A DNA stretch of 64,000 nt from a virus, in IMG/VR virus record IMGVR_UViG_3300045912_000789, positions 1 to 64,000 of that record; one strand, given 5' to 3'. Under the pieces are notes generated by a model. It ran no database searches. It was not told where the DNA came from and worked only from the letters and a program-made list of their open reading frames with translations. The stretch's first letter is position 1. Each line of letters opens with the position of its first letter. Position numbers and translations under genes: made by a program. Of this stretch, positions 3,757 to 63,391 are shown in pieces.

Positions 3757-3962
3757 CCCCCAGGGCGATGGCAACGGTCCTGCTACTCCTGATCGCTCTC
3801 CGCCTCTGTCACCGGGGGCTGGAGGCGCTCAGGTGTAGCAGGCCGCTTCCGGGGCCCGCGTTCCCCTGGTGTCGGTGCGCCGGCCCCTGTTGCTGGTGCG
3901 ACTACATGACCGCCTATGAGCAAGAGCCCGATCGGCCTGCCTCACAGGGACCCTACCGATGA
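3753..3962 (+). CDS. Small Cys-rich, possibly membrane, protein
   Basis: ATGA coupling at both ends; hydrophobic N-terminus; atypical codons. Confidence 0.4.
   Translation: MTPRAMATVLLLLIALRLCHRGLEALRCSRPLPGPAFPWCRCAGPCCWCDYMTAYEQEPDRPASQGPYR
3913..3923 (+). promoter_or_regulatory. Phage promoter motif class A (CCTATGAGCAA)
   Basis: Matches the CCTATNAG motif found at 7-8 other operon heads; ends 35 nt before ATG 3959. Confidence 0.55.
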
Positions 3963-4924
3963 CCGAGTTCAAGAGCCAGACGAAGTTCAGGGCGTTTCTC
4001 GCCCCCATCAGGATCTCGCCGTTCGTCGTGGACGGTGTGCGGACCTGTACGATCAGCGGTGTCGACGACGAAGGGACGCGTCTGGAGGAGGTCATCAAGG
4101 CCTCGTTCGAGAAAGGCGTTCCGGTTCGGTTCGAGCACGAGGTGAGGCGGCTGCCGACCGAGCCGCCCCCGCCTCCTGCCGGGCCCAGCATCTACAAGAT
4201 CGGAGATCCTCCGGGAGTTGAGCCGCCGTGCGAGGAGGGTGGCAACTGCTCGTGGGTCTGGGACGGAGACGAGCCCGAGTCCGATCTCTACTGCGAGAAC
4301 TGCTACCGCTCCCGGAACTGGGAGCTGAAGGAGCGAGATGAAGGACGCAGTCCCGAGACCGCAGGTGATGCCGCCGGCGTCGAAGCTCAGGATCGAGATG
4401 GACATCCCGGCGGGAGTGATCCCGTGGTTCTCGGAGGGCCTCCGGCTCAAGACGGAGATCCCGGTGCAGATCACGAACGATCGATCCCTGGGCGAGCAGC
4501 TCTCGGAGGCGCTCCGCGCGGCGTCGGAGAGGTTCAGGGTCGAGATCATCAGCAAGGAGAAGACGCTGGGCCGCCGACGGTGAACCCGGCCCTGCGCGAC
4601 GAGCTGGAACGTGTGCTCGATCCGGTCCTCAAGCTCGACACCGGGAAGCTGCACGAGCTGGGGATGCGGCTCTACCGCAGAGATCACGGGGGTGGTAGTG
4701 TGTTCCCCCCACTGAAGGAGACGACCATGGAGAAGAACGGAAACACCTTCGTGCCCGGCGACCACGTGACCCTGGCGCGAGGAGAGATCGATCCCCGCAC
4801 GAAGCAGGCCGCGCATCGCGGCAAGGGCACGGTCCGACCCGAGTCCAGCGACGGCCGCATGAAGGTCGCCTGGGAAGACGGCTCGGAGAGCTGGGAGAAG
4901 CCCGAGGACCTCAACCGGGGCTGA
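3959..4924 (+). CDS. Hypothetical protein; the frame runs through several apparent genes
   Basis: Protein-like N-terminal ~125 aa with C..C..CxxC; no stop until 4924. Confidence 0.5.
   Translation: MTEFKSQTKFRAFLAPIRISPFVVDGVRTCTISGVDDEGTRLEEVIKASFEKGVPVRFEHEVRRLPTEPPPPPAGPSIYKIGDPPGVEPPCEEGGNCSWVWDGDEPESDLYCENCYRSRNWELKERDEGRSPETAGDAAGVEAQDRDGHPGGSDPVVLGGPPAQDGDPGADHERSIPGRAALGGAPRGVGEVQGRDHQQGEDAGPPTVNPALRDELERVLDPVLKLDTGKLHELGMRLYRRDHGGGSVFPPLKETTMEKNGNTFVPGDHVTLARGEIDPRTKQAAHRGKGTVRPESSDGRMKVAWEDGSESWEKPEDLNRG
4338..4583 (+). CDS. Hypothetical protein (81 aa) nested in another frame of 3959..4924
   Basis: AAGGAG SD; high GC3 codons; GTGA coupling to 4580. Confidence 0.6.
   Translation: MKDAVPRPQVMPPASKLRIEMDIPAGVIPWFSEGLRLKTEIPVQITNDRSLGEQLSEALRAASERFRVEIISKEKTLGRRR
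4727..4924 (+). CDS. Small SH3-like beta-barrel protein (65 aa)
   Basis: Own AAGGAG SD and TAGTGT box at 4696-4701; FVPGDHV..GKGTV..VAWEDGSESW pattern. Confidence 0.6.
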   Translation: MEKNGNTFVPGDHVTLARGEIDPRTKQAAHRGKGTVRPESSDGRMKVAWEDGSESWEKPEDLNRG

Positions 4925-4956
4925 TCCCCGCTGATCGACCACAGGAGGACAGAGAC

Positions 4957-5838
4957 ATGGGCAACAAGGCCGAGATCACCACGCTCGACGGCATGCGCAA
5001 GGTGGCGCACGCCATGGTCGACGACTTCTTCAACCACCTCCCGGCGAACCCCGACGGCACGCCCGTCGACAACGTCCGCCTCCACCACGAGCGCCCGTTC
5101 GAGCGGCCCGGTGAAGGAGGATCGATCCTCCAGACCGGCGTGCTGATCGGGTTCGAGGCGCGCTTCGCTCGGCCGGTCATCACTCCGGCCGTGGGCTCGC
5201 GCCTCGTGCTCCGCACCCGCGAGGGGACGTTCGTCCTCGCCCACCAGAGCCGCGAGTCGCTCACGTCGCTCATCCGCTTCATGGTCGACGTGCTCGGAGG
5301 GCTGACCGAGTACGAGATCGTGGAGCGCATGGACCGCGGGACCGTGCTCTTCACCGACATGTCCATCGCGGAGATCAGCCGTCGCTCGAACCTGCTCTTC
5401 GAGCCGGTCGGCGATCCGGTCGGCCAGCCCGTCATCGAGACGGCGCCCGAGCCCGACGACACCACCGAGCAGGTCCGCCTCGCCGCCGAGAAGGAGCGCG
5501 CGGAGCAGGAGGCTCGCGAGCGCGCGGAGAAGGCGGAGGCCGAGGCCCGCGAGGCCGAGGAGCGTCGCCTCGCCGAGGAGAAGCGCGCGGAGGACAGCAC
5601 CCAGCAGCTCACGCCCGAGACCCTCGCCGAGCTGCGCGAGGAGTCGCGCACGGAGCAGCCGAGCGTCACCGACCTCGAAGGCGCGGTGGCCGAGGACATC
5701 GTCGACACCGAGGACCGTCGCTTCAGCGAGGATGCCGGTCTGACCGAGCCGATGCCCGAAGCCGAGGAGCCGGTCGCCGAGGGGAGCGCGCCGGCTGCCG
5801 AGGAGACCAAGACCAAGAGCAAGCGCAAGAAGAGCTGA
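4957..5838 (+). CDS. Hypothetical protein with an acidic coiled-coil C-terminus
   Basis: AGGAGG SD; E/A/R-rich helix. Confidence 0.75.
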   Translation: MGNKAEITTLDGMRKVAHAMVDDFFNHLPANPDGTPVDNVRLHHERPFERPGEGGSILQTGVLIGFEARFARPVITPAVGSRLVLRTREGTFVLAHQSRESLTSLIRFMVDVLGGLTEYEIVERMDRGTVLFTDMSIAEISRRSNLLFEPVGDPVGQPVIETAPEPDDTTEQVRLAAEKERAEQEARERAEKAEAEAREAEERRLAEEKRAEDSTQQLTPETLAELREESRTEQPSVTDLEGAVAEDIVDTEDRRFSEDAGLTEPMPEAEEPVAEGSAPAAEETKTKSKRKKS

Positions 5839-5844
5839 TCGAAC

Positions 5845-7273: not shown

Positions 7274-7288
7274 TGCTATGCTCGCGTC
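7274..7288 (+). promoter_or_regulatory. Class B promoter (TGcTATGCT-N6-ATG), leaderless
   Basis: TATGCT at 7277-7282, 6 nt before ATG 7289; no SD. Confidence 0.65.
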
Positions 7289-10200
7289 ATGCCGGCGGAG
7301 TTTCGGATCGACCAGGTCACGCCCGGAGCAGGAGTTCCGGGGCGCACGCGCCACGACCTGGTGCCCAACGAGGTCATCACCCTCGTCGCCACGAGCCCCA
7401 CAGGGCCCGGCGTCACGTACACGTGGGAGATCCTCGACAAGGTCGGCTCGACCGCGGTCCTCAGCGCGACGACCGGGCCGTCGGTCACCATCGGCCCGGC
7501 GCCGTCGATCGTCCGGCCGTGCAGCTTCCGCATCAAGCTCACGGTCAACGACAACGGGACCATCACCTCGACGGTGCGCCGCGCCTCTGTGCGCACGCTG
7601 GTCACCGGGATCTTCGTCCCGCTCTTCCCCGAGTCGGCGCTGAGCAGCGGTACGCTCTCGTCGAACAGCCCGGACAGCAGCGAGGACAACGCGGTCTACA
7701 ACAACCGCGCGGGGCTCGGCGTCGCCGATCAGAACTGGCGCGGCTGGGCCGAGTGGGCCTACGAGATCACGCTCGCGGTCGAGTCGGGAGGCGGCGCCGG
7801 CGGCCCGCCCACCGGCCCGGCCGGTGGCGACCTCGGCGACACCTACCCGAACCCCTCGGTGCGCAAGCTCTGGGGGCGCGCGATCGAGAACGTCGCGCCG
7901 AACAACAACGACTACCTCCGCTGGGACAGCGGCACGGTGAGCTGGAGGCCCACGGCGTTCCCCAGCGGCCTGCCGCCGACGGGCGCCGCGGGTGGAGACC
8001 TCGCCGGCAACTACCCGAACCCCACGGTCGCGCAGGTCCAGGGCTTCCCGGTCCAGTCGGGCACGCCTGCGGTGAACGACATCTGGCGCTTCAACGGCGT
8101 GAGCTGGGATCGCATCCCGCACGGCAACTTCATCGACGGCACCGAAGTGCTGCCTTCGATCTACTTCGGTTCGGATCCCGGCACCGACACGGGCCTCTAC
8201 AGGCCCGCCGGCGACACGATCGGCTTCACCAGCGGCGGGTCCTTCGTCGCGAAGTTCAAGCGTCCGCTCGTGGCAGCGGCCGGCACGCAGACGTCGTTCC
8301 AGCTCGTTTCGGATGTCGGTGGTGTCTCGGGCACCGCTGGCTTCAACGCGCTCTCGATGGACGTCCAGGGTGGACCGACCGGGTCGGGCATCCAGCGGCT
8401 GATCTACGTCACTCGGGACGGAGGTGACCGATTCACGGTCATGGAGACCGGCCAGATCCTGGCGCTCGATGGCACGGTGGGCGCTCCGGTCTATTCCTTC
8501 ATCAGCGATACCGACACCGGCCTCCGGAACACCGGAGTGAACAAGATGGCGCTCGTCGCCGGCGGTGTGGATCGACTGAACCTCGACACCACCCAGGCGT
8601 CGTTCTCGGTGAACGTCTACGCGCCGGTGGGTAGCGCAGCCCTCCCGTCGTACTCGTTCAACGGTGACGGGAACACCGGCTTCTACGAGATCGTCGCCGA
8701 CTCCATCGGCGTCTCCACGGGCGGCGTGCTCAGGCTCGCCGTCTCGACGACCGGCATCGACGCGACCCTGCCCTTCCGTGGGGTCGACGGCTCGGCGGCC
8801 AACCCCGGCTACGAGTTCGTGTCGGACCAGACGACCGGCATGTTCCTGATCGCGGCCGGTGTTCTCGGCTTCTCGGTCAGCGGCACCGAGCGCATGCGGC
8901 TCACCGCGACCGGCGGGCTCCTCGCTGGCAACTGGCTGCCGAGCGTCGATCTCACCTACAACCTCGGTGATCCTTCGTTCCGCTGGAACAACCTGTGGGT
9001 GGGCAGCGCGTCGTTCACGTCGGGCCTCTTCGCCGATGGAACGGTCGGCGCACCGTCGATCTCGTTCACCGCCGACACTAACACCGGCTTCTACCGCGTG
9101 GGCACGGGCAGCATCGGCGTGTCCGGCGACGGTCTACAGATCGTCCAGTTCCAGGCGCCGACTGGGGTGAACCCGCAGGCTCTCTTCGCCGCCGGCGCAG
9201 CGGGCGTCCCGTCGATCTCCTTCAACGGCAACTCGAACACCGGCATTTTCCGTCCCGTCGGCCAGGCGGTCGGCATCTCCAGCGATGGCGGGGAGATCGT
9301 CCGTATCACCCGTCAGTCGTCGGTCACCGACACGCCGCAGATCCTGGTCGCGACCGGTGTCGATCCGGCGACGCGGCCCCACTACAGCTTCATCTCGAAC
9401 ACTGACACCGGCATGTCGTTCAACGACGGCGGTCTCGCGTTCTACGCCGACGGTCAGCGCCCGCTGCTCCTCACCGGCATCGCCGGCATTCCGCGCGCCA
9501 TCATCCAGCCGGGTACGGCCGGCAACCCGGCGCTCGCCTTCGAGGGTGACCAGACGACGGGCGTGTTCCGCGCCGGCGCCGGCATCTTCGGGATCGCGAC
9601 GAGCGGCGTCGAGCGCGTGCGTTTCGTGCTCGGCCAGAGCGTCCTGTCGACCGACTGGTACCCCGACGCGACCAACACCCGTGACATGGGCTCGGGTGTC
9701 ACTCGGTGGCGCAGCATCTACGCCGCAACGCAGGTGGATGTCTCGGGCGGCCTCGTCCGGGCAGACCGGATTCACGTGCAGACCGATGGCACGGCCGCTG
9801 CGCCCGCGATCGTGTGGGGTGTCTACGGTGACAACGGCTTCTTCGGCGGAGGCGCCGATCGTCTCTCTGTGTCGGTCGACGGCCTGGAGGTCATGCGGTG
9901 GCGGAACGTCACCAGCACGAACCCGAAGTCGCTGATCACCGATGGCTCGACCTCCCATCCCGGACTCGGCTTCATCTCCGACGAGGACACCGGCTTCTAC
10001 AGGCCCGGCGCCGGCATCGTCGGTCTGGTGGGCGATGCCCTGGAGATCGTCAGGTTCCAGGCCCCCACCGGCGTGAACCCGCAGGGTCTGTTCGCGGCTG
10101 GCTCTGCCACCGCTCCGGCGATCTCCTTCGTCGGCGACCCCAACACTGGCTTCTTCTCGGCTGCGGCGGACTCCATCGGCATCGCGACCAACGGCACCGA

Positions 10201-21487: not shown

Positions 21488-22479
21488 CAGGGATTCTCCG
21501 CCCAGAAGCGCTCCTGGATGTCGCAGCAGCGCAGGTTGAGGAACTCCACGTTCGGTGCGCGGGGCAGCTCGGACTTCGCGTACAGCTCCTGCATCTCGGC
21601 GTCCTGTTGCTCTGCCCACGCGATGTCGTCGTACTTCCAGGCGCCGCGGCGGATCGCCAGCAGCTCCTCGGCGTCCGGGCGCCTCACGACCATCTCGCCG
21701 CGCGTCAGGATCTCACGGCACATCCGCAGCAGGCGCACGAGGTGCATGGCGTGCTTGGTGTCGTAGCCGAACTTCGCCTCCAGCTCGGCACGCGCTGGGT
21801 TGCGTTGCTTCTTCCAGCTCTGGTAACTGTTCCAGTTCTGCATCGCAGCGTGGTAGCGCTTCTCGGCGCCGACGATCTCTTGGACGTTCGGGCTGGGCGC
21901 GTAGCCCTCCTCCTTCAGATCGTCCACGAGCTTGTCGTACGCCCCGAGCATGTCGGGCGTGATCTTGACGTTGTCCGGCAGGCCGAAGTCCTTGCGCTCG
22001 GGCTTGGCGCCCGGCGGGTTCCGCAGCCAGCCGCGGTGTGTGCGGATGCGCTTGAGCTGGTGGATCGCGTAGCCGGTGAAGGTGTGCTTGGCCTTCTTCG
22101 ACAGGAACGCGTAGCGCAGCTCGCGCAGCGACTGCCCGGCAGGCGTGATCTTGATGATGTCCGAGTCGTCGACGAAGAGGACTTCGAGGACGTTCGGGTT
22201 GCAGTCTGCTGCGAGGTTCATGAACTTGCGGAGGTCGTAGATCACCTGATCGACCACGGCGTTCCCGAAGCCGTCGCGCTGGATCTTCGACTCGTTCTGC
22301 TCGAACGTGTAGGCGAAGCCCGTGACGTGCGTCCGTGGCGCGATGGCGGCGCCGCGAAGATCGATGTCGCTGTCGGGGAGGTTCGTGCCGTAGGCGTGGG
22401 ATCCGTGCCGGGCGAGGTAGATGGTGCGCGGTTCGATGTCGAAGTGCATGTTCACCAGGTCTTGGGTCTGAGTTTCCAT
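21487..22479 (-). CDS. Pol-beta superfamily nucleotidyltransferase (YcgL/RlaP/T4 NrdC.11-like)
   Basis: GSHAYGTNLPDSDIDLRG, NPNVLEVLF, YDTKHAMHLVRLL and LLAIRRG motifs. Confidence 0.85.
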   Translation of the reverse strand: METQTQDLVNMHFDIEPRTIYLARHGSHAYGTNLPDSDIDLRGAAIAPRTHVTGFAYTFEQNESKIQRDGFGNAVVDQVIYDLRKFMNLAADCNPNVLEVLFVDDSDIIKITPAGQSLRELRYAFLSKKAKHTFTGYAIHQLKRIRTHRGWLRNPPGAKPERKDFGLPDNVKITPDMLGAYDKLVDDLKEEGYAPSPNVQEIVGAEKRYHAAMQNWNSYQSWKKQRNPARAELEAKFGYDTKHAMHLVRLLRMCREILTRGEMVVRRPDAEELLAIRRGAWKYDDIAWAEQQDAEMQELYAKSELPRAPNVEFLNLRCCDIQERFWAENP

Positions 22480-22733
22480 CCGCGCTCATCGAGCCAGGCC
22501 TTCAGATCGGCCCAGCTCGCTGACGCGCGGTCCTTGTTCTTCTCGTCGAGGAAGAAGAGCTTGTAGACGTCGCGGAAGCAGAGTCCGTCGTGGCATGAAC
22601 AACAGCCACCGGGACGCATGATCGGAGGCTGAGGCTGCCCGCGGAGATCTAGCGCTCCATCGTCAGTTCTCTTCTCGACGATCACCTTCTGATCGAGTCG
22701 GAACGGTTGTGTGTCGAACTCCGTGATGACCAT
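22452..22733 (-). CDS. Cys-cluster hypothetical protein
   Basis: CCSCHDGLC; in operon. Confidence 0.55.
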   Translation of the reverse strand: MVITEFDTQPFRLDQKVIVEKRTDDGALDLRGQPQPPIMRPGGCCSCHDGLCFRDVYKLFFLDEKNKDRASASWADLKAWLDERGWKLRPKTW

Positions 22734-22747
22734 GGTCAACCCCCAGG

Positions 22748-22854
22748 AAAAAGACGCGGCGCCGGTGCACCGGCACCCCAGGTTTCCCCAGAGTACCAGT
22801 GCACCGGCGGGCGCGGAGGAGAGAACACACGAAGGAGGGGCGGCTCCCCACCAC
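22748..22854 (-). ncRNA. Candidate small RNA / attenuator leader
   Basis: Begins just after a class A motif; CU-rich segment; 22-bp hairpin 22761-22808 with GAAA loop and five G-U pairs valid only on this strand; U5 tract. Confidence 0.55.
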
Positions 22855-22865
22855 TTGCTTATAGG
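22855..22865 (-). promoter_or_regulatory. Class A motif CCTATAAGCAA
   Basis: Conserved motif flanked by CCACC/GGTGG and GGCGG/CCGCC arms. Confidence 0.65.
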
Positions 22866-22881
22866 TGGATCCCGCCTCAGT

Positions 22882-23613
22882 TCATCGCGCCGCGAGCTGC
22901 GCCATCATCTCCTCGATCTTGGACGGCAGCTCCTCCAGCGGGCATCTGTTGTCGAGGACGTACTGGAACCGTTCGCGAGGGATCTCGGTCAGCTCGCGCT
23001 CGCTGGCGTGCGTGGCCTTCGCGGCCTCCTCCAGCTTGCGCAGGAGCAGGACCGTGGTGCCGCCCAGCTCGACGCTGCGGGCTTGCTCGTTGATGAAGCG
23101 ACCGTCGGTGACGACGAACTGGGGCTCGGGCTCGATCTGGACGTTCTCGTAGGCGGGCTGCATCGGGCTGGAGAAGAGCGGAGCGAACGAGCGAGCCTTC
23201 CAGTTCTGGCGAGCGCGCCACATCGACGAGAACAGGTTGTCGATCCAGACCGTGCCGAAGAGACGCCGGCCCCACTCGGTCCCCAGGGTCTGGAGAGCGA
23301 TCCGCGGGTTGACGTAGCGGGGGTAGTCGTCGAGGCATCCCGGTTGCGTGCAGCTCAGCCCGCCCTTCGTGTTCTCGAAGAGGGGCGAGTCGCACTTCAG
23401 ACAGCGGTCGCCCATCGGGTACTGCTTGTACTGGTTCTCCCGGTTCTTGCTCGGACCGTAGAGATCCTCGTCCGTGAAGTCGGGGAAGGCGATCTTGACC
23501 ATCTGCTTGAGCGGCGCCGCGAAGCTCACCTTCGTGAACCCGTGGTTCGCCACGAGGTAGTCGCCGATGGTGTCCTTGCCGCTGCCGCGGCCACCGAAGA
23601 GGACGATGTTCAC
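22882..23613 (-). CDS. Deoxynucleoside monophosphate kinase
   Basis: GGRGSGKDT P-loop, SFAAPLK, PRIALQTLGTEWGR, VVTDGRFINE and HASE motifs (T4 gp1-like); CxxC..C..C insertion. Confidence 0.88.
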   Translation of the reverse strand: MNIVLFGGRGSGKDTIGDYLVANHGFTKVSFAAPLKQMVKIAFPDFTDEDLYGPSKNRENQYKQYPMGDRCLKCDSPLFENTKGGLSCTQPGCLDDYPRYVNPRIALQTLGTEWGRRLFGTVWIDNLFSSMWRARQNWKARSFAPLFSSPMQPAYENVQIEPEPQFVVTDGRFINEQARSVELGGTTVLLLRKLEEAAKATHASERELTEIPRERFQYVLDNRCPLEELPSKIEEMMAQLAAR

Positions 23614-23933: not shown

Positions 23934-23946
23934 CGCTTTCCTTTCG

Positions 23947-23958
23947 TTGCCTGATAGG
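23947..23958 (-). promoter_or_regulatory. Class A motif CCTATCAGGCAA
   Basis: Variant of the conserved motif at a divergent junction. Confidence 0.6.
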
Positions 23959-30107: not shown

Positions 30108-30122
30108 GGAACCTACCTTCTC

Positions 30123-30141
30123 CTGCTGATAGGCTAGGCGC
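30123..30141. promoter_or_regulatory. Overlapping divergent promoters: class A (-, CCTATCAGCAG 30133-30123) and class B (+, TAGGCT 30130-35, N6, ATG)
   Basis: Both motifs share bases within a 34-bp intergenic gap. Confidence 0.65.
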
Positions 30142-33225: not shown

Positions 33226-33237
33226 GGTTCTCCTCTA

Positions 33238-33271
33238 TCGCTTATAGGCCGAACCGCGCTACCGTTGGGGC
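33238..33271. promoter_or_regulatory. Divergent promoters: class A (-, CCTATAAGCGA 33248-33238) and class B (+, TACCGT 33260-65, N6, ATG)
   Basis: Both conserved motifs lie in a 46-bp gap. Confidence 0.65.
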
Positions 33272-37419: not shown

Positions 37420-37919
37420 TGCCGTTCCAGTCGAAGAGGCAGTGGCGCGCCGCCTTCTCCGGCCGGATCCCCGGCTTCAGCAAGGAGAAGGCGCGGGAGT
37501 GGGCGCATGAGACGAAGGGTGAGTTCAAGCAGCTCCCCGATCGTGCGCCTGCCGAGAAGGGCAAGCCCACTCTGCGATCGAAGGAGGCGTCCGCGGCACC
37601 CAAGGCGGTGTACGTCGCGAAGAAGCTGCGCGAGCAGCTCATCAGCAGCGGCACCGGGAAGAACGTCTTCGATGCGATGCAGAGCGAGCGCGAGCGGTCG
37701 CGCCGCAAGCAGGCGTCCGACGAGTTCGTCGACTTCTGCGCGAAGATCGCCTTCGCCGTGCCGCGCCCGGGCCAGGTCTCGATGGCCTCCCGCCACGTCG
37801 GCAGCTTCAGCGGTCAGGCGACGACGAACTTCCTGAAGGCTCCCGGATCGACCACCGCAGCCGTCACCAACCCCCGTCTGAGCCTCCGCAACGCGATGAC
37901 GAAGACCATGCGGACCTGA
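37419..37919 (+). CDS. Basic putative head-internal protein
   Basis: MPFQSKRQWR N-terminal motif; KEA/KQA/KIA motifs; GGGAG SD; TACGAT box at 37390-95. Confidence 0.65.
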   Translation: MPFQSKRQWRAAFSGRIPGFSKEKAREWAHETKGEFKQLPDRAPAEKGKPTLRSKEASAAPKAVYVAKKLREQLISSGTGKNVFDAMQSERERSRRKQASDEFVDFCAKIAFAVPRPGQVSMASRHVGSFSGQATTNFLKAPGSTTAAVTNPRLSLRNAMTKTMRT

Positions 37920-37930
37920 CCTATCAGCAG
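37920..37930 (+). promoter_or_regulatory. Class A motif CCTATCAGCAG
   Basis: Identical 11-mer to 30133-30123; directly before the GGAGG SD of the sigma gene. Confidence 0.7.
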
Positions 37931-37943
37931 GTGGAGGCGCCGT

Positions 37944-38774
37944 ATGGCGAACAAGAAGGAAATCGAGAAGGTCGAGAAGTTCATCAAGGATGCCGCCACG
38001 AGCCCGGCGAAGGTCGAGCGTGCGACGCAGCGGTACGGTGAGCTGCGAGGTCGGCGTGGTCAGGAGCTTCAGCTCTGGCACTCCTGGGATCAGAGCGGGC
38101 GGAAGCAGGAGCACCTCGAACCGCTGCTGAAGTCGCTCGATCCGCTCATCCGTTCCGAGACCACGAAGCGCATGCAGGGCCTGGGCGGGTCGATCTCGTC
38201 GCCGGCCCTGAAGAACGAGCTGCGCCGCGCCGCGGTGCGGGCGCTGGAGACGTACGACCCGAAGAAGGGCACCCAGCTCACGACGCACGTCGTGAACAAC
38301 TTCATGCGGATCACGGACTTCGTCGCCGCCAACCGCAACCCGAAGTACATGCCGCGCGAGGACGTCGAGCGCTTCGGGGCGTTCCAGAACGCCAAGCAGG
38401 AGTTCGTCGAGGAGCACGGCCGGGAGCCCACGCACTTCGAGCTGAAGATGAAGCTCCCGACCTGGAGCGATCGTCAGATCAAGAAGATGACCAAGGGCTT
38501 CGGCAGCGAGGCCTTCACGGACATGGGCACCGAGCTGGAGCACGACGTTCAGCACGAGGACCCGATGCAGCGTGTGCGCGGTGCGCTTCACCTGATGCGG
38601 AGCACGCTGACGCCCGAGCAGCAGACGTTCGCCGACATGCACTACCCCGCCGAGGGCGAGCCGCAGAAGTCGGTGTCCGCCATCGCCAAGGCGATGAAGA
38701 TCCCGGAGCACAAGGCCTACCGGATCAAGAAGAAGGTCGAGGCGAAGCTCGCCCCGATCATCAAGGGGCAGTGA
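37944..38774 (+). CDS. Phage sigma70-family factor (FliA/WhiG-like)
   Basis: Region 2 ALETYDPKKGTQLTTHV; region 3 EHGREPTHFEL; region 4 LTPEQQ..SVSAIAKAMKIP HTH. Confidence 0.8.
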   Translation: MANKKEIEKVEKFIKDAATSPAKVERATQRYGELRGRRGQELQLWHSWDQSGRKQEHLEPLLKSLDPLIRSETTKRMQGLGGSISSPALKNELRRAAVRALETYDPKKGTQLTTHVVNNFMRITDFVAANRNPKYMPREDVERFGAFQNAKQEFVEEHGREPTHFELKMKLPTWSDRQIKKMTKGFGSEAFTDMGTELEHDVQHEDPMQRVRGALHLMRSTLTPEQQTFADMHYPAEGEPQKSVSAIAKAMKIPEHKAYRIKKKVEAKLAPIIKGQ

Positions 38775-39969: not shown

Positions 39970-39983
39970 GGTAGACTCCTCCC

Positions 39984-40946
39984 ATGCCCGTCGTCACGCA
40001 GCAGCCCGTGCAGCTCTCGTACTTCGTCGCCGACCCGGCGACGGAGCTGCTGACGTACAACCGGCTGCGCTTCTGGCGAAGCCGCACCGGACAGGACGGA
40101 CTCTACGAGCCGGCGACGGCCGCTGCGGCAGCACCGGCAGAGTTGGAGGGCACTTCCGAGACCCCGCACCAGCTCAACGGCAAGACCCTGAGCTTCCGGG
40201 TAAGCGGCGTGACCCAGGTCGACGTGCTCTTCGCGGATCCCGACCCGGTCACGACCACGCAGGTCGTGGCGGCCATCACCGGCGCGACGGCGCTGGTCGT
40301 GGCCACCGACGTGGGCGGGAAGCTGCACCTCGCGTCCGTGGCGACCGGCAGCGGCGCCAGCATCGAGATCCTGGAGTGCGACGCGGCCCCGTTCCTCGGC
40401 TTCGATGTGGGGCAGGCGGCTGTCGGGCTCGACGCCGACCTCGTGCTCACCGCCGGCGTCCACGAGTACCTCTACACCGATCAGAACAGCTCGGTGGACT
40501 TCTGGTACCGGGTCGAGCTGCTCCACAGCGTGACTGCGCAGACGAAGGGGGCCGGCCCGGCGTTCCAGGCAGGGCCGATCGGAACGCCCAACAGCACCAA
40601 GATCTGGTGCTACATCCGGCTGACCGATCTGGGAGGCCGCCCGCTGGCCGGGCGGATCGTGACTCTTCTGAACCCGTTCATCCCGAACACCGTGGTGTCG
40701 GGAGCGTCTCGGTGGGGGATCTTCCGCCACTACGCGCAGATGACCACCGACAGCGAGGGCTACGCTCAGATCCGAGCGCTGCGTGGGATGCAGGTCGACG
40801 TGGCGGTCGACGGCACGAACTTCATCCGACGCCTCGGCATCCCCACCACGGGCGACAGCGTCGACCTGCTCGACCCGTCGCTGGTGGTCGAGGACGAGTT
40901 CGGCATCCAGGAGCCGAACATCGACTTCGCGGTGAGGACGTCGTGA
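39984..40946 (+). CDS. Putative virion structural protein
   Basis: TAGACT-N6-ATG; beta-rich; C-terminal GRP..TD..G domain shared with 42149..43063. Confidence 0.6.
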   Translation: MPVVTQQPVQLSYFVADPATELLTYNRLRFWRSRTGQDGLYEPATAAAAAPAELEGTSETPHQLNGKTLSFRVSGVTQVDVLFADPDPVTTTQVVAAITGATALVVATDVGGKLHLASVATGSGASIEILECDAAPFLGFDVGQAAVGLDADLVLTAGVHEYLYTDQNSSVDFWYRVELLHSVTAQTKGAGPAFQAGPIGTPNSTKIWCYIRLTDLGGRPLAGRIVTLLNPFIPNTVVSGASRWGIFRHYAQMTTDSEGYAQIRALRGMQVDVAVDGTNFIRRLGIPTTGDSVDLLDPSLVVEDEFGIQEPNIDFAVRTS

Positions 40947-42059: not shown

Positions 42060-42089
42060 GTGGGTGCTCTCCTCGTGTGTTCGGTGGGC

Positions 42090-42148
42090 CGGAGCCCGTT
42101 CACTGGCTTATAGGGGCACCGGGCTCCGATTTCGTGTAGGATTCCGGC
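42090..42148. promoter_or_regulatory. Divergent promoters: class A (-, CCTATAAGCCA 42114-42104, inside a 9-bp IR) and class B (+, TAGGAT 42137-42, N6, ATG)
   Basis: CGGAGCCCG (42090-98) and CGGGCTCCG (42120-28) flank the motif. Confidence 0.65.
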
Positions 42149-43063
42149 ATGGCTCTGGAGACAGTCGAGATCACGGTTCAGGACGACCAGATCGTGCCGG
42201 CGCTGGTCGACGGCGTCGTCGTCCGGGTGTTCGACGTCACGGGGACCTCGCTGATCACCGAGGGGACCACCGGCGTGGTGCTTCCGGGGAAAGTCCAGTT
42301 CACGCTGGACGGCAACAACCCGGCGATCCGGTACCAGCTCCGGTTCTACATCAACGGTGGCTCGATCCCGTCTCCCCAGTACATCGACGTCTTCTCGCCC
42401 CCGGCAGCCGCGCCCACCGGCGCGAACAACTTCCTGATCACGGCGAGCCTCTTCACGCTGCCCACGGCGACCAACCCCCGGCTCTGCCGCGCCTCCGGGT
42501 ACATCTGGGGGCCGAACGGTCGCCCGAAGCTCGGGATCGACATCGCCTTCATCCCGATGTTCACGCCTCTGGTGGTCGACGGGATCGGCATCCTGGGCGA
42601 GCGCGTGAACATCAAGAGCGACAAGAACGGCTTCTTCCAGGTCGATCTGATCCGAGACGGGAAGTACGAAGCCGTCGTCGAGTCGCACGAGAATGTCACC
42701 AGGTGCGTGGTCGTGCCCGACCGTTCCTCGATCAACATCATGCACCTGCTCTTCCCCATCATCGTCGACGTGGACTTCGGCGTGGTCAGCCCCGTCGCCG
42801 TCCCCCTCGGAGGGATCATCACCCTCACACCGCAGATCACCGCCAGCAACTTCCAGGTACTGGAAGGGACAGCCGTGGAGGACGTACAGTACGCGGTGGA
42901 CGACCCCAGCGTGGTCGGGCTCACCATCAACCAAGGCACGATCGTTCTCAATGGACTCTCCGCAGGCAGCACATCCCTTCGTGTCACCCGCAAGGACACG
43001 TCGATCGTCTACATCCCCGATCCCGGCATCGATGGAGCGGTCGTTCCGATCACGGTCGCCTAG
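42149..43063 (+). CDS. Virion protein with an Ig-like C-terminal domain
   Basis: VQYAVDDPSVV..G.SAGST.L.V Big-like pattern. Confidence 0.6.
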   Translation: MALETVEITVQDDQIVPALVDGVVVRVFDVTGTSLITEGTTGVVLPGKVQFTLDGNNPAIRYQLRFYINGGSIPSPQYIDVFSPPAAAPTGANNFLITASLFTLPTATNPRLCRASGYIWGPNGRPKLGIDIAFIPMFTPLVVDGIGILGERVNIKSDKNGFFQVDLIRDGKYEAVVESHENVTRCVVVPDRSSINIMHLLFPIIVDVDFGVVSPVAVPLGGIITLTPQITASNFQVLEGTAVEDVQYAVDDPSVVGLTINQGTIVLNGLSAGSTSLRVTRKDTSIVYIPDPGIDGAVVPITVA

Positions 43064-46059: not shown

Positions 46060-46073
46060 GGTAGAGTTCGGGG

Positions 46074-46406
46074 GTGACCGAGGAAGCCACCCCCAGGAGC
46101 AGCGCGCGCGAGCAGCAGCGTGAGTTCCGCCGCATCGTCGCGAATGCGGTGGGCGAGCTGCGCTCGAACGAGATCCGAGACAGCTACGCCGCCCTGAGCC
46201 TCGAAGAGCTGATCGATCAGCAGATCGATCGGCTGGAGGGGACGGAAGACGGGCTGAACCCCAGCCGGCTCCAGCGCATCCAGAGAGTGCGCCAGGAGCT
46301 GGCCGACAACATCGAGGCGATGAAGGCCACGCCGCCGTCGGACTTCCGCCGGCACGACCCGGACGGCGACGTGAACACGGCACCCGAGACCGAGGACGAG
46401 GGCTGA
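46074..46406 (+). CDS. Hypothetical coiled-coil protein
   Basis: TAGAGT-N6-GTG. Confidence 0.65.
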   Translation: MTEEATPRSSAREQQREFRRIVANAVGELRSNEIRDSYAALSLEELIDQQIDRLEGTEDGLNPSRLQRIQRVRQELADNIEAMKATPPSDFRRHDPDGDVNTAPETEDEG

Positions 46407-47049: not shown

Positions 47050-47061
47050 TAGGATCCCCGC

Positions 47062-50000
47062 ATGGCGAACAACGACACCCGCCAGTTCCTCCAGGACGCG
47101 CTCGTCAGGTACGACCCCGACATCGACCTGAGCGAAGGCTCGCGCGCGGACACAGAGCTGGTGCAGCCGATCCTCCAGCGAATCGGCATCGACCCGTTCG
47201 ACGACGACATCCTCACGTTCGTGCGAACGAGGGTGCAGCAGTCGTTCCCGAACCTCGCCATCACCGAGGACGATCCGCTCACCGACATTCTGCTCGACGC
47301 GATGCGCGTGCTCATCGAGCCGCTCGTGCGCGAGGTGAAGCTCGTCAAGCTCCGCGGCAGCCTGCGCAACATCGAGAGCCTCTCGGACGATGAGGTCGAG
47401 GCCCTCCTCGCGAACTTCTTCATCTCGCGGATCACCGGCGGCTTCTCGGTCGGCGTCGTGCGGGTCTACTTCGCCACCCCACAGAGCCTCAGCCTGACGC
47501 TGACGAACCCGGCCACCACGAAGGCCGGGCTTCGTTTCCGGCCGACTCGTCCGCAGGCGATCACGGCCGACCAGATGCTGCTCAACCGCGAGGGCAGCGA
47601 GTTCTACTTCGACGTGAACTACACCGCGGAGAAACGCGGGGACGAGTACAACGTCGAGCCGAACGAGATCGTCTCCGTGGCGAACCTGCCCACGGCCACG
47701 CGGATCCGGAACCCCCGTCGCTTCCGAGGCGGCGTCCCGCAGGAGGGGATCCTCGACTTCGCGGCGCGCGCTCAGCGCAGCCTGAGCGACAAGACGCTCA
47801 CCGTGGAGCGCGGCATCATCTCGACGCTCACCGAGAGCTTCCCCGCCATCCGTCGCATCTTCTCGGTCGGCTTCCGTGATCCCGAGATGCAGCGCGATGT
47901 GATCAAGGGCGGAAGCCTCGGCCCGGTCCCCGGCGCGGACATCTCCGGCGACTTCTTCGGCGCCGGCACCGCGGTCGACGATTTCGACGGCGACCTGCTC
48001 ACCCCCATCCTCGATGCTCCTGGCGGGGCCTTCGTGTCGCGCCTCGGGCCGGTCGGCGCGCAGCCGGAGGGGTGGTTCGTCACGGTCGTCTACACGGTGG
48101 GCGCGACGCTCGTCGTGGAGGACGTGGCGGTGCTGGAGGTGCTCAGCTCGACGCAGGTCCGGCTGGATCACGAGTTCCCGGTGACCTCGCCGGCCCAGTC
48201 CGTCACGTGGATGCTGCGCCAGCGCAGCCTGACGATCTCGGACATCCCGGGCGGCATCGTGCTTCCGGACACGGCGACCGGAACGCTGGAGATCAAGAAG
48301 GACGAAGTCCACATCGGCGGCAAGACCGACGTGTACATCGCGGGCGAGACCGAGCTGGCCACGGCGCAGATCGAGAGCCTCACCGACGAGAGCCCCGCGG
48401 CGAAGGGCACGAACGCCCAGACGCAGGGCCTCACCCCGGGAAGCGAAGACATCATCAGGATCAACGACCCCAGCGGGCTGATCGCCCCGGGGTCGAGCCT
48501 CGTTCTGGAAGAGGGCGTGGATGCCGGGAGCTACCGCATCCTGGAGATCGTGAGCGGCCCGTCCCCGCTCTACGTGCGGGTCGACACCGACATGACGGGC
48601 GCGCAGGGCTCGCTCGCGTGGAAGGTGGTGGACGAGATCGACGTCGAGCTGACCGACCCCAAGGACATCAAGGTCGAGGGAGCCGACATGGTCACCTCGG
48701 CCGGCAACCAGGTTGTCACGACGTCGAGCGCCACGAACTTCATCGACGCGAACGTCCAGCCCGGCGACGTGCTGGAGCTGTTCGACGAGGACTTCGGCGG
48801 CGAGTTCGCGGTCGACGAGGTGAACGCCGTGTCCCTGAAGGTCTCGCCGGCGCCGGCGCGGACCTTCACGTCCGTGTCGTACCGCGTGTTCCGCCGCTCG
48901 GAGGCGGTCGATCCGCCGCTCGTGCGGGTGTCCTCGATGGAGCTGCTCGACAGCACCGGCGCGCCGAGTGGCACCGTCATCCCGTACCGCGATCCCGTGC
49001 TCGCGCTGAGCAACGCGTTCCAGAACGAGGGCTCGGGCTTCGTGTTCGAGGGCCTCTGCCTCGTCGGCCTGGTGTCGGACCCCGAGCCGTCGGGCTCGGC
49101 GGCGTACGTGGTCGGCGGTCAGACGATCGACTGGGAGGTCTACAACCCCGACACGATCTGGCTGGACCCGGTGAACGTCGGCACGTTCACGTTCATCGCC
49201 GGCCCGGCCAAGACCGCAGCGCAGGTGGTCGCGGAGATCAACGCGGACGTCCTGCTCGATCTCATGGGCGTGAAGGCTCGCGTCATCACGAAGCTGAACA
49301 ACGACTACGTCGGGATCGTGACCTCCTCCCACATCCGATTCGTGGGCGGCACCGCGCTCAGTGCGTTCGGCTGGGGCGCCGGCGTCCGGAACTCGATGAT
49401 GCGGAGCGTGGAGGACCAGTTCTCCGATGCCGGTGTGCGCCTCGGAGATGCGATCGAGGTCGTCGAGGGGAACAGCGCTGGCATCCTCGGTCGGATCATC
49501 GCAGGCCCCATCGTCGGCGGACCGAGCGACACCGTGTTCGTCGGAACCGGTCCGGTCGGTCCCGAGGAGACGTCCGGCTTCTCTGGGCTCTTCAACAACG
49601 TCGTGTTCAACCCCGACGTGAACGTCCTGGTGAGGATCGGGCGCGCCTCGGTCGGTTCGGCCCGCGTCTTCTTCCTCGGGCCCACGGCCGCGGAGTTCGA
49701 CTACCGCACCACGCGGTTCACCGCGAGCGTCCCGGAGGCCACCCTGCTCTTCCGGCCCGACCCGGAGAACCTGCGGATCGTGCGCCCGCCTCCGCCGATC
49801 ACCGAGCTGCCGAACACCGGCATCACGGACAACACCACGCCGGGTCAACTCACCGACAACGACGCGAACTTCCTCCTGTTCGGCATCCAGCTCGGCGACC
49901 TCGTCGACGTCCTGTACGTCCCGATCGTGGGAACCGGGCCTCTGCCGCCCAGCGGCAACATCGCGTTCACCGGGCTGAACAACGTCCTGCGCATCCGGCT

Positions 50001-60343: not shown

Positions 60344-60400
60344 GCAAAGAGCTGGGGAGAGCCCCGGGCCGGCGCCCGGGGATCCCCAGAGGTGCTCACA
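60339..60400. terminator. Long hairpin at a convergent junction
   Basis: TGTGAGCA..CTGGGGA..CCCCGGGC-CGGC-GCCCGGGG-a-TCCCCAG..TGCTCACA. Confidence 0.65.
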
Positions 60401-60791
60401 GACCGGGCAAGACCACCTGAATCCAGGTGTCCAGGACCGCCTTGTCGACCGGCTTGGGGAACCACGGCTCGAAGCCGTCGATCGCCCCTCCCTCGCGCCC
60501 CGACATCACGGCGACCGGGAGCCCGGCTTCCTTGGCCTCGCGGTAGACGCGCTCGCCGGCATTGTCGCGCGGGAACTGCTCGTCTTCGCGGAACGGGAAC
60601 TGCCAGTCCGTGAGGACCGCGCCGATCTCACACTTCACCCCGATGAACTCGGCGCCCTCGCGGATGATGCGCACGGCCGTGACCATCGTGGTCGCGCGCA
60701 CCACCTGCACCTTGTGGAGTCCGAGGAGGCGGGTGATGGCGCGAGCCACGTGATCATCGTCTTCGACGAGCAGGATGCACTTCTTGGTCAT
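60396..60791 (-). CDS. Stand-alone response regulator receiver (CheY-like) protein
   Basis: ILLVEDD, VLTDWQFP (phospho-Asp), VMSG and FPKPV. Confidence 0.85.
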   Translation of the reverse strand: MTKKCILLVEDDDHVARAITRLLGLHKVQVVRATTMVTAVRIIREGAEFIGVKCEIGAVLTDWQFPFREDEQFPRDNAGERVYREAKEAGLPVAVMSGREGGAIDGFEPWFPKPVDKAVLDTWIQVVLPGL

Positions 60792-60811
60792 GTGTTCGGA
60801 TTCTCCTTCTA

Positions 60812-60822
60812 CTGCTCATAGG
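60812..60822 (-). promoter_or_regulatory. Class A motif CCTATGAGCAG inside a ~15-bp IR covering the RBS
   Basis: - strand reads GTGTCGGATTCC-CCTATGAGCAGTAGA-AGGAGAATCCGAACAC-ATG. Confidence 0.7.
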
Positions 60823-60838
60823 GGAATCCGACACGATC

Positions 60839-62214: not shown

Positions 62215-62227
62215 CTGTTCTATCTCC

Positions 62228-62560
62228 TCACTGTTTCCGGTTGCTGTGGTCGAAGATGATCGGGTTTCCGAGAGCGCACTCCGTGACCTGGACATCAGTA
62301 CACTGGAAGCACGCCCTAAGATCTCGTGTCTTGGCGGGACAGGCTTGGACGAGAGGCTCCACCTGCTTGAAGTTCTCGTCGATGAACGTCATGATCTTCA
62401 GTCGGATCTTGTCGACCTGCCGTTCAGGGAGGTCGATCTCTTCACCGAGGATGATCTTGGTGAGGACCTCGCGGCCGAGTCCTCTGTGTGCGTTGAGGTT
62501 GTTCTCCTGAGCGAGCAGCAGTAGCTCGCTGGCGTTCATCTCGTCAAGGAGATCCAGCAT
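62228..62560 (-). CDS. Rho-N-like plus Cys-cluster protein
   Basis: LDEMNASELLLLA..L..GR..L; CP..CFQC..C; GGAGG SD. Confidence 0.65.
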   Translation of the reverse strand: MLDLLDEMNASELLLLAQENNLNAHRGLGREVLTKIILGEEIDLPERQVDKIRLKIMTFIDENFKQVEPLVQACPAKTRDLRACFQCTDVQVTECALGNPIIFDHSNRKQ

Positions 62561-62798
62561 CGGAACCTCCCGTCGAGACGAACTTCACGGAGAAGCGGCT
62601 GTGCGGGCAGATCTTGCACCGGCTGCCGAAGTACTGGCTGAGGCAGAGAGCCCGCAGGACGACGGTACGCTTGCCCTTCTCCACGCGGAAGAAGTGGCCC
62701 TCGGCCTTGAAGACCGAGCCCCGTGCGTAGCACACGGCGTAGCGCGGATCGTCGGCCTTGTCCTTGTTCAGCGTGACCAGTTCGGTCGCCTTGCTCAT
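62544..62798 (-). CDS. Small zinc-binding protein
   Basis: ATGA coupling; C..C..CKICPH. Confidence 0.6.
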   Translation of the reverse strand: MSKATELVTLNKDKADDPRYAVCYARGSVFKAEGHFFRVEKGKRTVVLRALCLSQYFGSRCKICPHSRFSVKFVSTGGSDAGSP

Positions 62799-63391
62799 TC
62801 GTAGACCTTGTAGACGAGTACGATGCGGGGATCCAGACGATCTTCCCGCTTCTTGATAGCGACGTCGAGGTGCGCGGAATCGTCGATCCCGGTGCCCTTG
62901 ACGACGGCGTCTTCGATCAGCTTGATGTAGTTGCTGCCGTCCTTCTTCTGGTAGGGGGATCGGGGCTGGGGTTTCGCTGCCTTCTTCCCGGCCTTCGGCT
63001 TCTTCGGGACCGTCATGCTCCCGCCGACCTGCCACGCCCGGTTCAGGAGATCCTCCATGTAGAGCCAGATCGTGAGGTCAATGTGCCCCCCTTGCTTATA
63101 GACGGCATCCACCACGTGCTTCCACGCGATGGGCTGGGTGCCGAGCGCCGCAGCGGTGGCCGCCTTCAGCTTGTCCTCGAAGTTCCGGCCCTCCGCGGTC
63201 AGGAAGCGGTTCCCGACCCCTGAGTAGGCCTTGTTGATCGAGACCGGGCGGGGATCGCGGAGCACGGCCCAGAACTCGGTCGCCTGCACCCGCTGAGCTT
63301 CGTAGGCGCCGATGATCGACTTCTCGCGCTCCACCATCTCGACGTGGCGCCTGTTGTCGTCACCGGCGAAGAGGCCGAGCTGATCACCCAT
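62795..63391 (-). CDS. rusA: RusA-like Holliday junction resolvase
   Basis: PVSINKAY..DGSNYIKLIEDA..GIDDS..K..PR motifs. Confidence 0.75.
   Translation of the reverse strand: MGDQLGLFAGDDNRRHVEMVEREKSIIGAYEAQRVQATEFWAVLRDPRPVSINKAYSGVGNRFLTAEGRNFEDKLKAATAAALGTQPIAWKHVVDAVYKQGGHIDLTIWLYMEDLLNRAWQVGGSMTVPKKPKAGKKAAKPQPRSPYQKKDGSNYIKLIEDAVVKGTGIDDSAHLDVAIKKREDRLDPRIVLVYKVYE
63092..63102 (-). promoter_or_regulatory. Possible internal class A motif TCTATAAGCAA
   Basis: One mismatch to consensus; uses TAT and CAA codons that are rare in this genome. Confidence 0.4.

Follow-up and report, generated by a model that had tools for sequence, protein, structure and literature searches.

A conserved gene-start motif of an uncultured 172-kb phage family, most likely the promoter of its own RNA polymerase and sigma factor

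Introduction

What kind of signal is the short motif CCTATNAG, which recurs ahead of genes in a 64,000-nucleotide stretch of viral DNA (the window), and what reads it? The initial annotation of this stretch described a promoter-like motif at the heads of transcription units, embedded in inverted repeats that would occlude the Shine–Dalgarno (SD) region, and proposed a genome-wide class of hairpin-gated promoters. Here, we treat the motif and the repeats separately. As a gene-start signal, CCTATNAG is genuine and conserved in an uncultured 172-kb phage family; its most likely role is as the promoter for the RNA polymerase (RNAP) and sigma factor that these phages themselves encode. Hairpin gating as a general mechanism does not hold.

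An oriented, intergenic motif

All eight exact copies of CCTATNAG lie where they had been annotated (3913+, 22865-, 23958-, 30133-, 33248-, 37920+, 42114- and 60822-; Table 1), against an expectation of 1.4 +/- 1.15 for the window, and none of 100 shuffles reached eight. The enrichment extends to the whole 172-kb genome, which is 92% coding: it holds 22 copies, of which our own gene calls place 21 between genes (binomial p about 1e-22), and all 22 are in sense orientation to the downstream gene. The motif is also the top intergenic k-mer family (25-29x enrichment), and a PWM scan of the genome returns about 28 sites, nearly all intergenic. Two members of the original list are less secure. The core at 3913 is exact and correctly placed, but it sits inside a plausible 69-codon ORF (3753-3962), where it reads as codons for Ala-Tyr-Glu, and its PWM score is at the coding-region background. 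The variant at 63102 (TCTATAAG), listed as a weaker copy, is doubtful, being inside a gene with a similarly background-like score.

Table 1. Positions of the motif copies, inverted repeats, predicted transcript and candidate machinery; coordinates are those of the window except where G000 is given.
Feature	Sequence	Position	Strand	Remarks
Doubtful motif copy		3913..3930	+	Core only, without downstream TG-R-A; PWM 12.5
Predicted motif-driven transcript		22738..22852	-	MFE -68.5, z -5.55
Motif copy	CCTATAAGcaagTGgtgg	22848..22865	-	Leads into candidate ~105-nt small RNA or leader instead of an ORF; PWM 26.0
Motif copy	CCTATCAG	23941..23958	-	17 nt before 107-aa gene; divergent intergenic region; PWM 17.5
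Motif copy	CCTATCAGcagg	30116..30133	-	18 nt before 116-aa gene; divergent region
Motif copy	CCTATAAG	33231..33248	-	15 nt before 178-aa gene; divergent region
Inverted repeat	CCATGCGG..ACCT / AGGT..CCGTATGG	37906..37947	+	Encloses motif, SD and start codon; z -2.0
Motif copy	CCTATCAGcaggTGGAGG	37920..37937	+	16 nt before sigma-factor gene
Sigma70-family sigma factor, 276 aa		37944..38774	+	Candidate reader of the motif
Inverted repeat	CGGAGCCCG / CGGGCTCCG	42090..42128	-	Encloses motif; z about -2
Motif copy	CCTATAAGccagTGaa	42097..42114	-	47 nt before 242-aa gene; divergent region
Inverted repeat	GTGTCGGATTC / GAATCCGAACAC	60792..60834	-	Encloses motif and SD; z -2.5
Motif copy	CCTATGAGcagtagAAGGAG	60805..60822	-	23 nt before 131-aa gene; PWM 27.1
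Doubtful variant	TCTATAAG	63085..63102	-	Inside coding region, no gene start near; PWM 11.7
Fused single-chain beta-beta' RNA polymerase		G000 89735-95965

The full element reads SCTATMAG-c-N3-TG-R-A-G-G. Within the TATMAG core, the A at the second position and the G at the last are invariant, so that the core does not match the TANNNT form of a -10 hexamer (T at -7) and would fit a sigma70-family hexamer only as a variant specificity. Downstream, TG at +12/13 occurs in 61 of 67 sites and an A is conserved at +15, regardless of the distance to the SD. Upstream there is a faint A-rich patch at -18..-16 and nothing more: TTGACA-like matches are at control level and RTCAW-N16 is found in 3 of 75 sites, which confirms the annotated lack of a shared -35 element.

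The company that the motif keeps is that of a transcription signal. Operons behind the motif code for PolA, a DnaB-like helicase, a RecA-like protein and a ligase, and further copies head the sigma gene, the tmRNA (a full-consensus copy 30 nt 5' of it) and a candidate small RNA. A terminator hairpin with a T-tract adjoins 14 of 75 copies, compared with 1-3% of random positions, and some copies lie in divergent regions of 47-63 bp, which leave no room for another promoter. In the relative G3, a variant of the motif stands 30 nt 5' of a tRNA cluster; in G2, no motif was found within 110 nt of the tmRNA. Its place ahead of tmRNA, tRNA cluster and small RNA, and after terminators, argues for a signal of transcription rather than translation.

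The candidate small RNA lies behind the copy at 22865, which has no SD downstream. The predicted transcript consists of a 5' stem, a single-stranded CU-rich, anti-SD-like tract and a 27-bp terminator hairpin with a U-run; it is conserved in G2, and no Rfam family was found for it. Elsewhere in the window, the 116-aa gene behind 30133 has a weak RNAP alpha-CTD-like match, and the 131-aa gene behind 60822 a weak match to a response-regulator receiver. The copy at 30133 also overlaps, on the opposite strand, the TAGGCT -10 of a leaderless gene starting at 30142.

The motif is enriched in five related uncultured phages of 57-66% GC (16, 17, 28, 5 and 20 copies in G001-G005, against 1-6 for a reversed-pattern control). 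The spacer is AT-rich in the relative with 57% GC. Each of the eight orthologous loci that we compared, with sigma identities down to 41%, has a copy immediately ahead of the sigma gene. In Salmonella phage Arash and Vibrio phage D69, both distant relatives, SCTATNAG is not enriched.

Candidate reader of the motif

The protein encoded behind the 37920 copy is a sigma factor: all 62 matches of its profile against the PDB are sigma factors (best RpoD, 1.3e-12), and it matches Arash gp10 at 4e-17. In region 2.3/2.4, the E. coli residues Y430, W433 and W434 align to H, N and N, that is, the aromatic residues that melt the -10 element are replaced. H115 is nearly invariant among 24 aligned family members, and N118 and N119 are invariant only in a three-sequence alignment. 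The factor carries a region 4 HTH, although the motif sites show no -35 element. The phage also encodes an RNAP of the multisubunit type, with beta and beta' fused in a single chain, which matches the Arash and Vibrio phage enzymes (tblastn 6e-166 to 2e-167). A six-frame search with PF00940 (T7-like single-subunit RNAP) gave no match, and control genomes gave none either. The sigma factor is most likely what reads the motif, as judged from their co-occurrence. Altogether, the annotated view of a promoter-like motif at the heads of transcription units is well supported by intergenic position, strict orientation, conservation across the clade, terminators upstream, RNA genes downstream and the accompanying sigma factor and RNAP.

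We consider it probable that SCTATMAG-c-N3-TG-R-A-G-G is a phage-specific, -10-only promoter whose likeliest reader is the phage sigma factor bound to the phage beta-beta' RNAP. TATMAG would then serve as the -10-like hexamer, its invariant A in second place and a G where housekeeping promoters have the T at -7, and the 4-5 nt that follow would form the discriminator. We know of no citable precedent for a G at the -7-equivalent position with a sigma70-family factor. The predicted start is the G or R conserved at +13/+14, for which the T-G-R at +12..+14, itself conserved, is the sole and indirect indication. With such a start, about half of the mRNAs would begin with the SD itself (5'-GGAGG...N5-8-AUG).

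This machinery would transcribe the non-structural genes (replication, sigma, tmRNA and accessory). Virion genes and the polymerase gene are headed by a second, host-like leaderless class (TANNNT-N6-ATG), which they would use separately. The sigma gene, too, has the motif ahead of it, which means that the loop would have to be set going by holoenzyme made beforehand (in the virion) or from some other promoter. Mass spectrometry detected beta, beta' and sigma in the virions of phage Arash (PMC10585845); by analogy with this relative, at about 30% identity, the machinery may be packaged here too.

The most serious alternative is that the motif is read by host RNAP, through a host alternative sigma, the phage sigma on the host core or a phage-modified holoenzyme, and that the beta-beta' enzyme serves the TANNNT class instead. 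As an ordinary member of the sigma70 family, the phage sigma could bind to a bacterial core, a pre-existing host enzyme would be the simplest starter for a sigma gene behind its own motif, and phage sigmas that redirect the host core are the commonest known case (T4 gp55, SPO1 gp28; PMC7824862). We nevertheless regard this reading as unlikely. The motif is invariant over relatives of 57-66% GC that probably have different hosts, as would be expected if its reader were phage-encoded; promoters of the TANNNT-N6 and TTGACC-N18-TAGACT class resemble a housekeeping host promoter; and Arash virions yield the sigma together with phage beta and beta'.

Flanking inverted repeats

The second alternative takes the repeats as the essence of the element: RNA initiated at the motif would be translatable, whereas read-through RNA would fold and hide its SD or start codon, the 5' arm lying upstream of the start site as in T4 e, soc and I-TevI. 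The complementary arms reported at the eight main copies exist as written, and they do differ at every site, yet folding is more stable than in dinucleotide shuffles at three sites only, 37920, 42114 and 60822 (z -2.0 to -2.5), with z -0.1 to -0.5 at the remaining five window sites. Cognate flanks pair better than non-cognate ones at the eight window sites (p about 0.015-0.02), an excess that is nominal, becomes p 0.03-0.07 over all 22 genome sites, is marginal in G3 (p 0.07-0.08) and is lacking in the close relative G2 (p 0.76-0.87). Nor does the presence of the motif go with stronger folding of upstream regions (z -1.08 with the motif vs -0.51 without, p 0.11).

The individual stems tell the same story. 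Those at 37920 and 60822 enclose an SD or start codon and lie behind co-oriented genes with no terminator between, and at 60822 the 3' arm lies over the spacer as far as the start codon. At orthologous sites in G2 and G3, however, the arms are lost. The 37906..37947 repeat is not conserved in seven orthologs, and flank pairing at eight orthologous sigma-gene sites gives p 0.10-0.18; the G2 ortholog of the 60822 site has an upstream terminator in place of the repeat. The arms at 42090..42128 are absent from the G2 ortholog as well, and this hairpin stops about 20 nt short of the SD. With the lack of an SD at 22865, the annotated usual overlap of the 3' arm with the SD is not confirmed. Moreover, half of the window sites (23958, 30133, 33248 and 42114) are in divergent regions, where there is no co-oriented gene upstream to supply read-through RNA, and terminators precede many copies.

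Neither the folding controls nor arm covariation in related phages thus bear out a genome-wide hairpin-gated class, and we regard gating across the class as very unlikely. The repeats are better described as GC-rich complementarity that arose for the most part by chance, together with a small number of lineage-specific stems, not as part of the element. Of the mechanisms offered in the initial annotation, silencing of read-through RNA could apply at individual lineage-specific sites (37920 and 60822) and not as a class property, and a DNA hairpin promoter of the N4 kind is disfavoured by variable arms and motif-holding loops of 20 nt or more. An RNA-processing site, or more broadly an RNA-level signal (endonuclease site, translational enhancer or RNA-binding-protein site in 5' UTRs) with the true promoters elsewhere, would suit the fixed short distance to an SD or start codon at about half of the sites and the overlap of +13..+17 with the SD, but is scarcely credible given copies that adjoin terminators on their 5' side, precede RNA genes that have no SD, lie in divergent regions too short for another promoter, and keep TG-R-A even where the SD lies 30-100 nt further downstream.

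Implications

The preferred reading, a promoter for the phage's own enzyme, provides a defined, testable consensus for a bacterial-type phage RNAP/sigma pair that had no described promoter, and it allows the genes of these phages to be sorted into two transcription classes by sequence alone. If the pairing of sigma and motif holds, it would amount to an orthogonal transcription system as compact as one gene each for polymerase and sigma plus an 18-bp promoter, and to a natural case of altered -10 recognition, with G at -7 and non-aromatic residues at the melting positions. A fuller joint reading is more tentative: a minimal two-gene machine of beta-beta' RNAP and aromatic-replaced sigma would be delivered with the virion and drive an early/replication programme from SD-initiating SCTATMAG promoters, leaving late virion genes to host-type leaderless ones. 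That the G replaces a universal -7 T, that the cascade is inverted in the manner of N4 and that this uncultured family is widespread are parts of the same reading, and as a set they too are somewhat doubtful. RNAP-encoding and sigma-encoding jumbo phages have been treated as separate groups (Iyer et al. 2021, PMC7824862).

Comparison with other phage systems

N4 promoters have 5-7-bp stems and 3-nt loops of conserved sequence and are read by a T7-like single-subunit enzyme. The present system would resemble N4 in an early class read by a possibly virion-borne phage polymerase and in the 'inverted' logic of a host-like class for late genes, and differs in its long loops, its variable, non-conserved arms and its multisubunit-type enzyme. 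The hairpins of T4 e, soc and I-TevI are matched in geometry at 37920 and 60822 (5' arm before the predicted start, 3' arm over SD, spacer or AUG). Unlike in T4, these stems are no class property, are unconserved in orthologs and are statistically weak, and several sites here lack transcription from a co-oriented gene upstream.

T4 late promoters (TATAAATA), for which gp55/gp33 act on the host core, are also phage-specific and -10-only, lack a -35 element, have a short invariant core and are read through a phage-encoded sigma-like factor, as is predicted here. They differ in consensus, SCTATMAG having a G at the last hexamer position; in heading late virion genes, whereas our motif heads non-structural (replication and accessory) ones; and in that the phage studied here encodes its own catalytic RNAP. 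SPO1 (gp28, gp33/34) and phiEco32 (gp36) likewise have a sigma70-family factor with a consensus unlike the host's. Their sigma-specific promoters are bipartite (-35 and -10) and use the host core, whereas our sites show no -35 and the phage has a core of its own.

Related machinery is found in Salmonella phage Arash and the Vibrio phages D69, D181 and D148, which have homologous RNAP (beta and beta') and sigma. Arash keeps beta and beta' as separate genes where this phage has one chain, the motif enrichment seen here is not shared by Arash or D69, and the Arash paper (PMC10585845) describes no promoter. A strategy of transcribing with the phage's own holoenzyme is likely to be common to all of them.

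Distribution and consensus of the motif

The CCTATNAG-core element, read here as a -10-only phage promoter, occurs eight times in the window, at exactly the coordinates reported in the initial annotation, against an expectation of 1.4 +/- 1.15 (none of 100 shuffles reaches eight). The complete phage genome (G000; 171,909 bp, 66% GC, CheckV 100%), whose first 64 kb form the window, carries 22 copies. Twenty-one of these are intergenic, in a genome that is only 8% intergenic (p about 1e-22), and all 22 lie in sense orientation to a downstream gene or RNA; the proposed placement at the heads of transcription units is well supported. The CCTATNAG family also supplies the top-enriched intergenic k-mers of this genome (25-29-fold).

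Conservation extends beyond the octamer, with C+8 at 18 of the 22 sites, T+12 at 14, G+13 at 20 and A+15 at 16. The first position tolerates G (GCTATNAG, about seven more sites), and a PWM scan returns about 28 sites scoring at least 13.7, almost all intergenic. Seven of the copies listed initially are robust, whereas those at 3913 and 63102 both have PWM scores at the level of coding background; the 3913 copy lacks TG-R-A and lies within a plausible 69-codon ORF (3753-3962), where it reads Ala-Tyr-Glu. That leaves 22865-, 23958-, 30133-, 33248-, 37920+, 42114- and 60822- as robust copies in the window. Pooling 67 sites from three genomes (57-66% GC) gives the consensus CCTATMAG-c-N3-T-G-R-A-G-G, preceded by T-rich positions at -5 to -3, C at -2 and only a faint A-rich patch at -18 to -16.

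No -35 element was found upstream of the motif sites. A candidate upstream element, RTCAW-N16, was rejected because it is present in just 3 of 75 sites, and a CTGATC k-mer enriched upstream of genes proved to be the stop codons of upstream genes caught in the extracted regions. In the longer 5' UTRs, the stretch from the motif to the Shine-Dalgarno sequence (SD) holds recurrent CA-rich repeats, (C)ACCGAAC(AC), which could be a translational enhancer or regulator site; regions upstream of genes show a 9-fold enrichment of ACCGAAC.

Promoter or RNA-level signal

An element placed just ahead of genes might act in RNA or in translation. Against this, GCTATAAG-catg-TG-A-G stands 30 nt upstream of the mature 5' end of the tmRNA, which has no SD. 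A tmRNA is present in the related phage G2 as well (tag ANDSSYAQARAA); another relative, G3, carries 10 tRNA genes instead, with a terminator and then CGTATAAG-atat-TG about 30 nt upstream of the cluster. In the window, the 22865 copy heads a candidate RNA predicted to start with a 5' stem and to end in a 27-bp terminator with a U-run (z -5.55), the CU-rich anti-SD-like tract between them (CCUCCUUCGUGUGUUCUCUCCUCC) being single-stranded. This candidate is kept in G2, and a 93-aa ORF begins just past its terminator; an Rfam search of window 22400-22950 returned no family, only sub-threshold miRNA noise.

Terminator-like hairpins with a T-tract, scored with a purpose-made test, directly adjoin 14 of 75 motif copies, compared with 1-3% of random positions. 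Some copies sit in divergent regions of just 47-63 bp, and TG-R-A is retained where the SD stands 30-100 nt further downstream. Taken together, the tmRNA, tRNA and small-RNA placements, the terminators, the short divergent regions and the SD-distant TG-R-A favour a promoter over an RNA or translation signal. The motif is a real promoter-like element, as the initial annotation had it: RNA-gene heads, terminator adjacency, tight divergent regions and sense orientation all bear this out.

Conservation among related phages

Relatives were located via a 1,341-aa protein and via the phage sigma factor. Five of them (G001-G005) contain 16, 17, 28, 5 and 20 copies of CCTATNAG, with 1-6 for a reversed-pattern control. 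The N4 spacer is AT-rich in a relative of 57% GC, which is the behaviour expected of a discriminator. Four further contigs, chosen by their sigma homologs (41-52% identity), have CCTAT(C/A)AG directly before the sigma gene. The sigma gene directly follows the motif at seven other sigma loci; in G2 the conserved motif and the gene are separated by an extra 99-codon ORF (sub-stretch L007, 14699-14998, minus strand). Two cultured but distant relatives, Salmonella phage Arash and Vibrio phage D69, show no enrichment of CTATNAG-N4-TG.

Inverted repeats and hairpin gating

The motif had been proposed to define a genome-wide class of promoters gated by hairpins that hide the ribosome-binding site. 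The inverted-repeat arms are present; as a class-wide gating feature they fail, and complementary arms are cheap in sequence of 66% GC. Folding of the -30 to +38 region against shuffles gave a mean z of -0.77; among the window sites, z was about -2 or below at 37920, 42114 and 60822 only. In start-anchored windows, 73 upstream regions lacking the motif had a mean z of -0.51 and motif-led ones -1.08, so the latter were not significantly more structured (p 0.11). We also compared the pairing between the two flanks of each site with that between its 5' flank and 3' flanks from elsewhere in the set, a control that preserves composition, the motif CCT and the SD AGG. For the window, with its eight sites, this comparison gave p about 0.015-0.02, and for the full set of 22 it gave 0.03-0.07; the values were 0.76-0.87 in G2, 0.07-0.08 in G3 and 0.10-0.18 across eight orthologs of the sigma-gene site.

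The arms are not conserved in related phages, stems being absent at orthologous sites: in G2, the site orthologous to 42114 retains the motif, as TCTATAAG, with both arms missing, and the one orthologous to 60822 has a terminator upstream, then the motif. Of the window sites, four are in divergent regions, without co-oriented transcription from upstream. Weak folding, lost stems and divergent sites thus argue that gating is not a class property. With stems at three window sites, their loss in orthologs and no flank excess in G2, the proposed class is not supported; hairpin gating is at most a lineage-specific trait of 37920 and 60822.

A 47-bp divergent region of near-perfect symmetry was also seen at G000 139986-140032. 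It holds back-to-back variants, GCTATAAG and CGTATCAG; ttGGAGGCACC and ATG come after each of them, which makes this 'inverted repeat' two promoters with their SDs facing apart.

A candidate polymerase and sigma factor

The phage encodes a single-chain RNA polymerase (RNAP) with matches to Rpb2_6 (2e-55), Rpb1 domains and Thermus beta' (3e-87), and the catalytic loop GGDIDGD. Its domains are bacterial-type, and its closest cultured relatives are those of phages D69 and Arash. A search for PF00940 (T7-like RNAP) gave no match, nor did its control.

The 276-aa sigma factor is weak as a single sequence (RpoD, E 0.01); a six-frame search for Sigma70_r2 (PF04542) at E<=1 did not detect it despite the sigma gene, and single-sequence Pfam likewise failed. 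Its identity comes instead from tblastn to Arash gp10, an annotated sigma factor (4e-17), and from a family profile against PDB. The family has 68 members, some with PF04539 matches and some named 'specialized sigma' by JGI; a 24-sequence profile hit sigma factors in 62 of 62 PDB matches (RpoD 1.3e-12, regions 2.3-4.2). E. coli Y430, W433 and W434 align with H, N and N, of which H115 is nearly invariant in the 24-sequence alignment and N118 and N119 are invariant in a three-sequence alignment only. Y430 and W433 are key for -10 melting, and the H/N/N substitution would fit an altered -10 specificity. In purified Arash virions, beta, beta' and sigma are abundant (PMC10585845).

Gene content and two proposed promoter classes

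A purpose-made GC3-based caller gave about 211 genes and 92% coding sequence in G000. Pfam and PHROG matches are lacking for most of the proteins; such searches returned next to nothing for ten large proteins of the window, and motif-led genes are mostly ORFans in them. Against cultured phages, a 12-kb part of the window had no Megablast match. Two small motif-led genes with weak domain matches (table) may be transcription accessory factors. A 321-codon ORF (window 3959-4924, plus strand) is open throughout, with its GC3 signal in another frame at about 4320-4560 and then back; this jump could reflect small genes that overlap, programmed frameshifts or indels in the assembly.

Coordinates of features (L024 and L027 are sub-stretches of G000)
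Feature	Coordinates	Strand	Remarks
tmRNA	G000 147719-148124 (L027:3719-4124)	+	tag ANDNSYAPAALAA; 30-nt hairpin leader behind motif copy
Candidate small RNA or attenuator leader	window 22738-22852	-	~105 nt; headed by 22865 motif copy
CA-rich repeats	window 42065-42085	-	
CA-rich repeats	G000 ~129995-130020, ~171800-171830, ~103190		
Single-chain beta-beta' RNA polymerase	G000 89735-95965 (L024:5735-11965)	+	2,039-2,076 aa; Rpb2 + Rpb1 domains
Sigma70-family factor	window 37944-38774	+	Arash gp10; PDB profile matches
Small motif-led gene	window 29757-30107	-	weak match to RNAP alpha C-terminal domain, E 2e-4
Small motif-led gene	window 60396-60791	-	weak match to response-regulator receiver domain, E 4e-3
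TANNNT-N6 sites	window 7277-7291, 30130-30144, 33260-33274, 39972-39986		
TANNNT-N6 sites	window 42137-42151, 46062-46076, 47050-47064; G000 78620, 89723, 142802, 161784		

A second class consists of TANNNT before ATG or GTG, found for 11 genes at N6, two at N5 and none at N7; some members have TTGACC at N18. It includes the RNAP gene (TTGACC-N18-TAGACT-N6-GTG) and precedes the genes of 1,778-, 1,188- and 1,341-aa proteins. The exact N6 spacing implies that the mRNAs of the large virion-type genes are leaderless, as is that of the RNAP gene. Motif-led operons encode a family A DNA polymerase, a DnaB-like helicase, a RecA-like protein, a DEAD/ResIII helicase, ligase, sigma and RNA genes. This split suggests that a phage holoenzyme serves the non-structural genes and host-like promoters the virion genes; here we infer both the order and the enzyme.

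Comparison with known systems

The hairpin interpretation is not supported. The motif is unlikely to be an N4-type hairpin promoter, as had been considered, and as a class it does not fit a T4-type system that sequesters ribosome-binding sites. No description of the motif turned up in literature searched by its consensus and by early promoters of virion-packaged sigma/RNAP. Iyer et al. 2021 kept RNAP-encoding and sigma-encoding jumbo phages apart (PMC7824862), so this phage family, which encodes both, falls outside that scheme. The motif resembles T4 late and other phage-sigma promoters in being -10-only and phage-specific, yet differs from them in its own consensus and in the class of genes it serves, and here the phage also has a catalytic core of its own.
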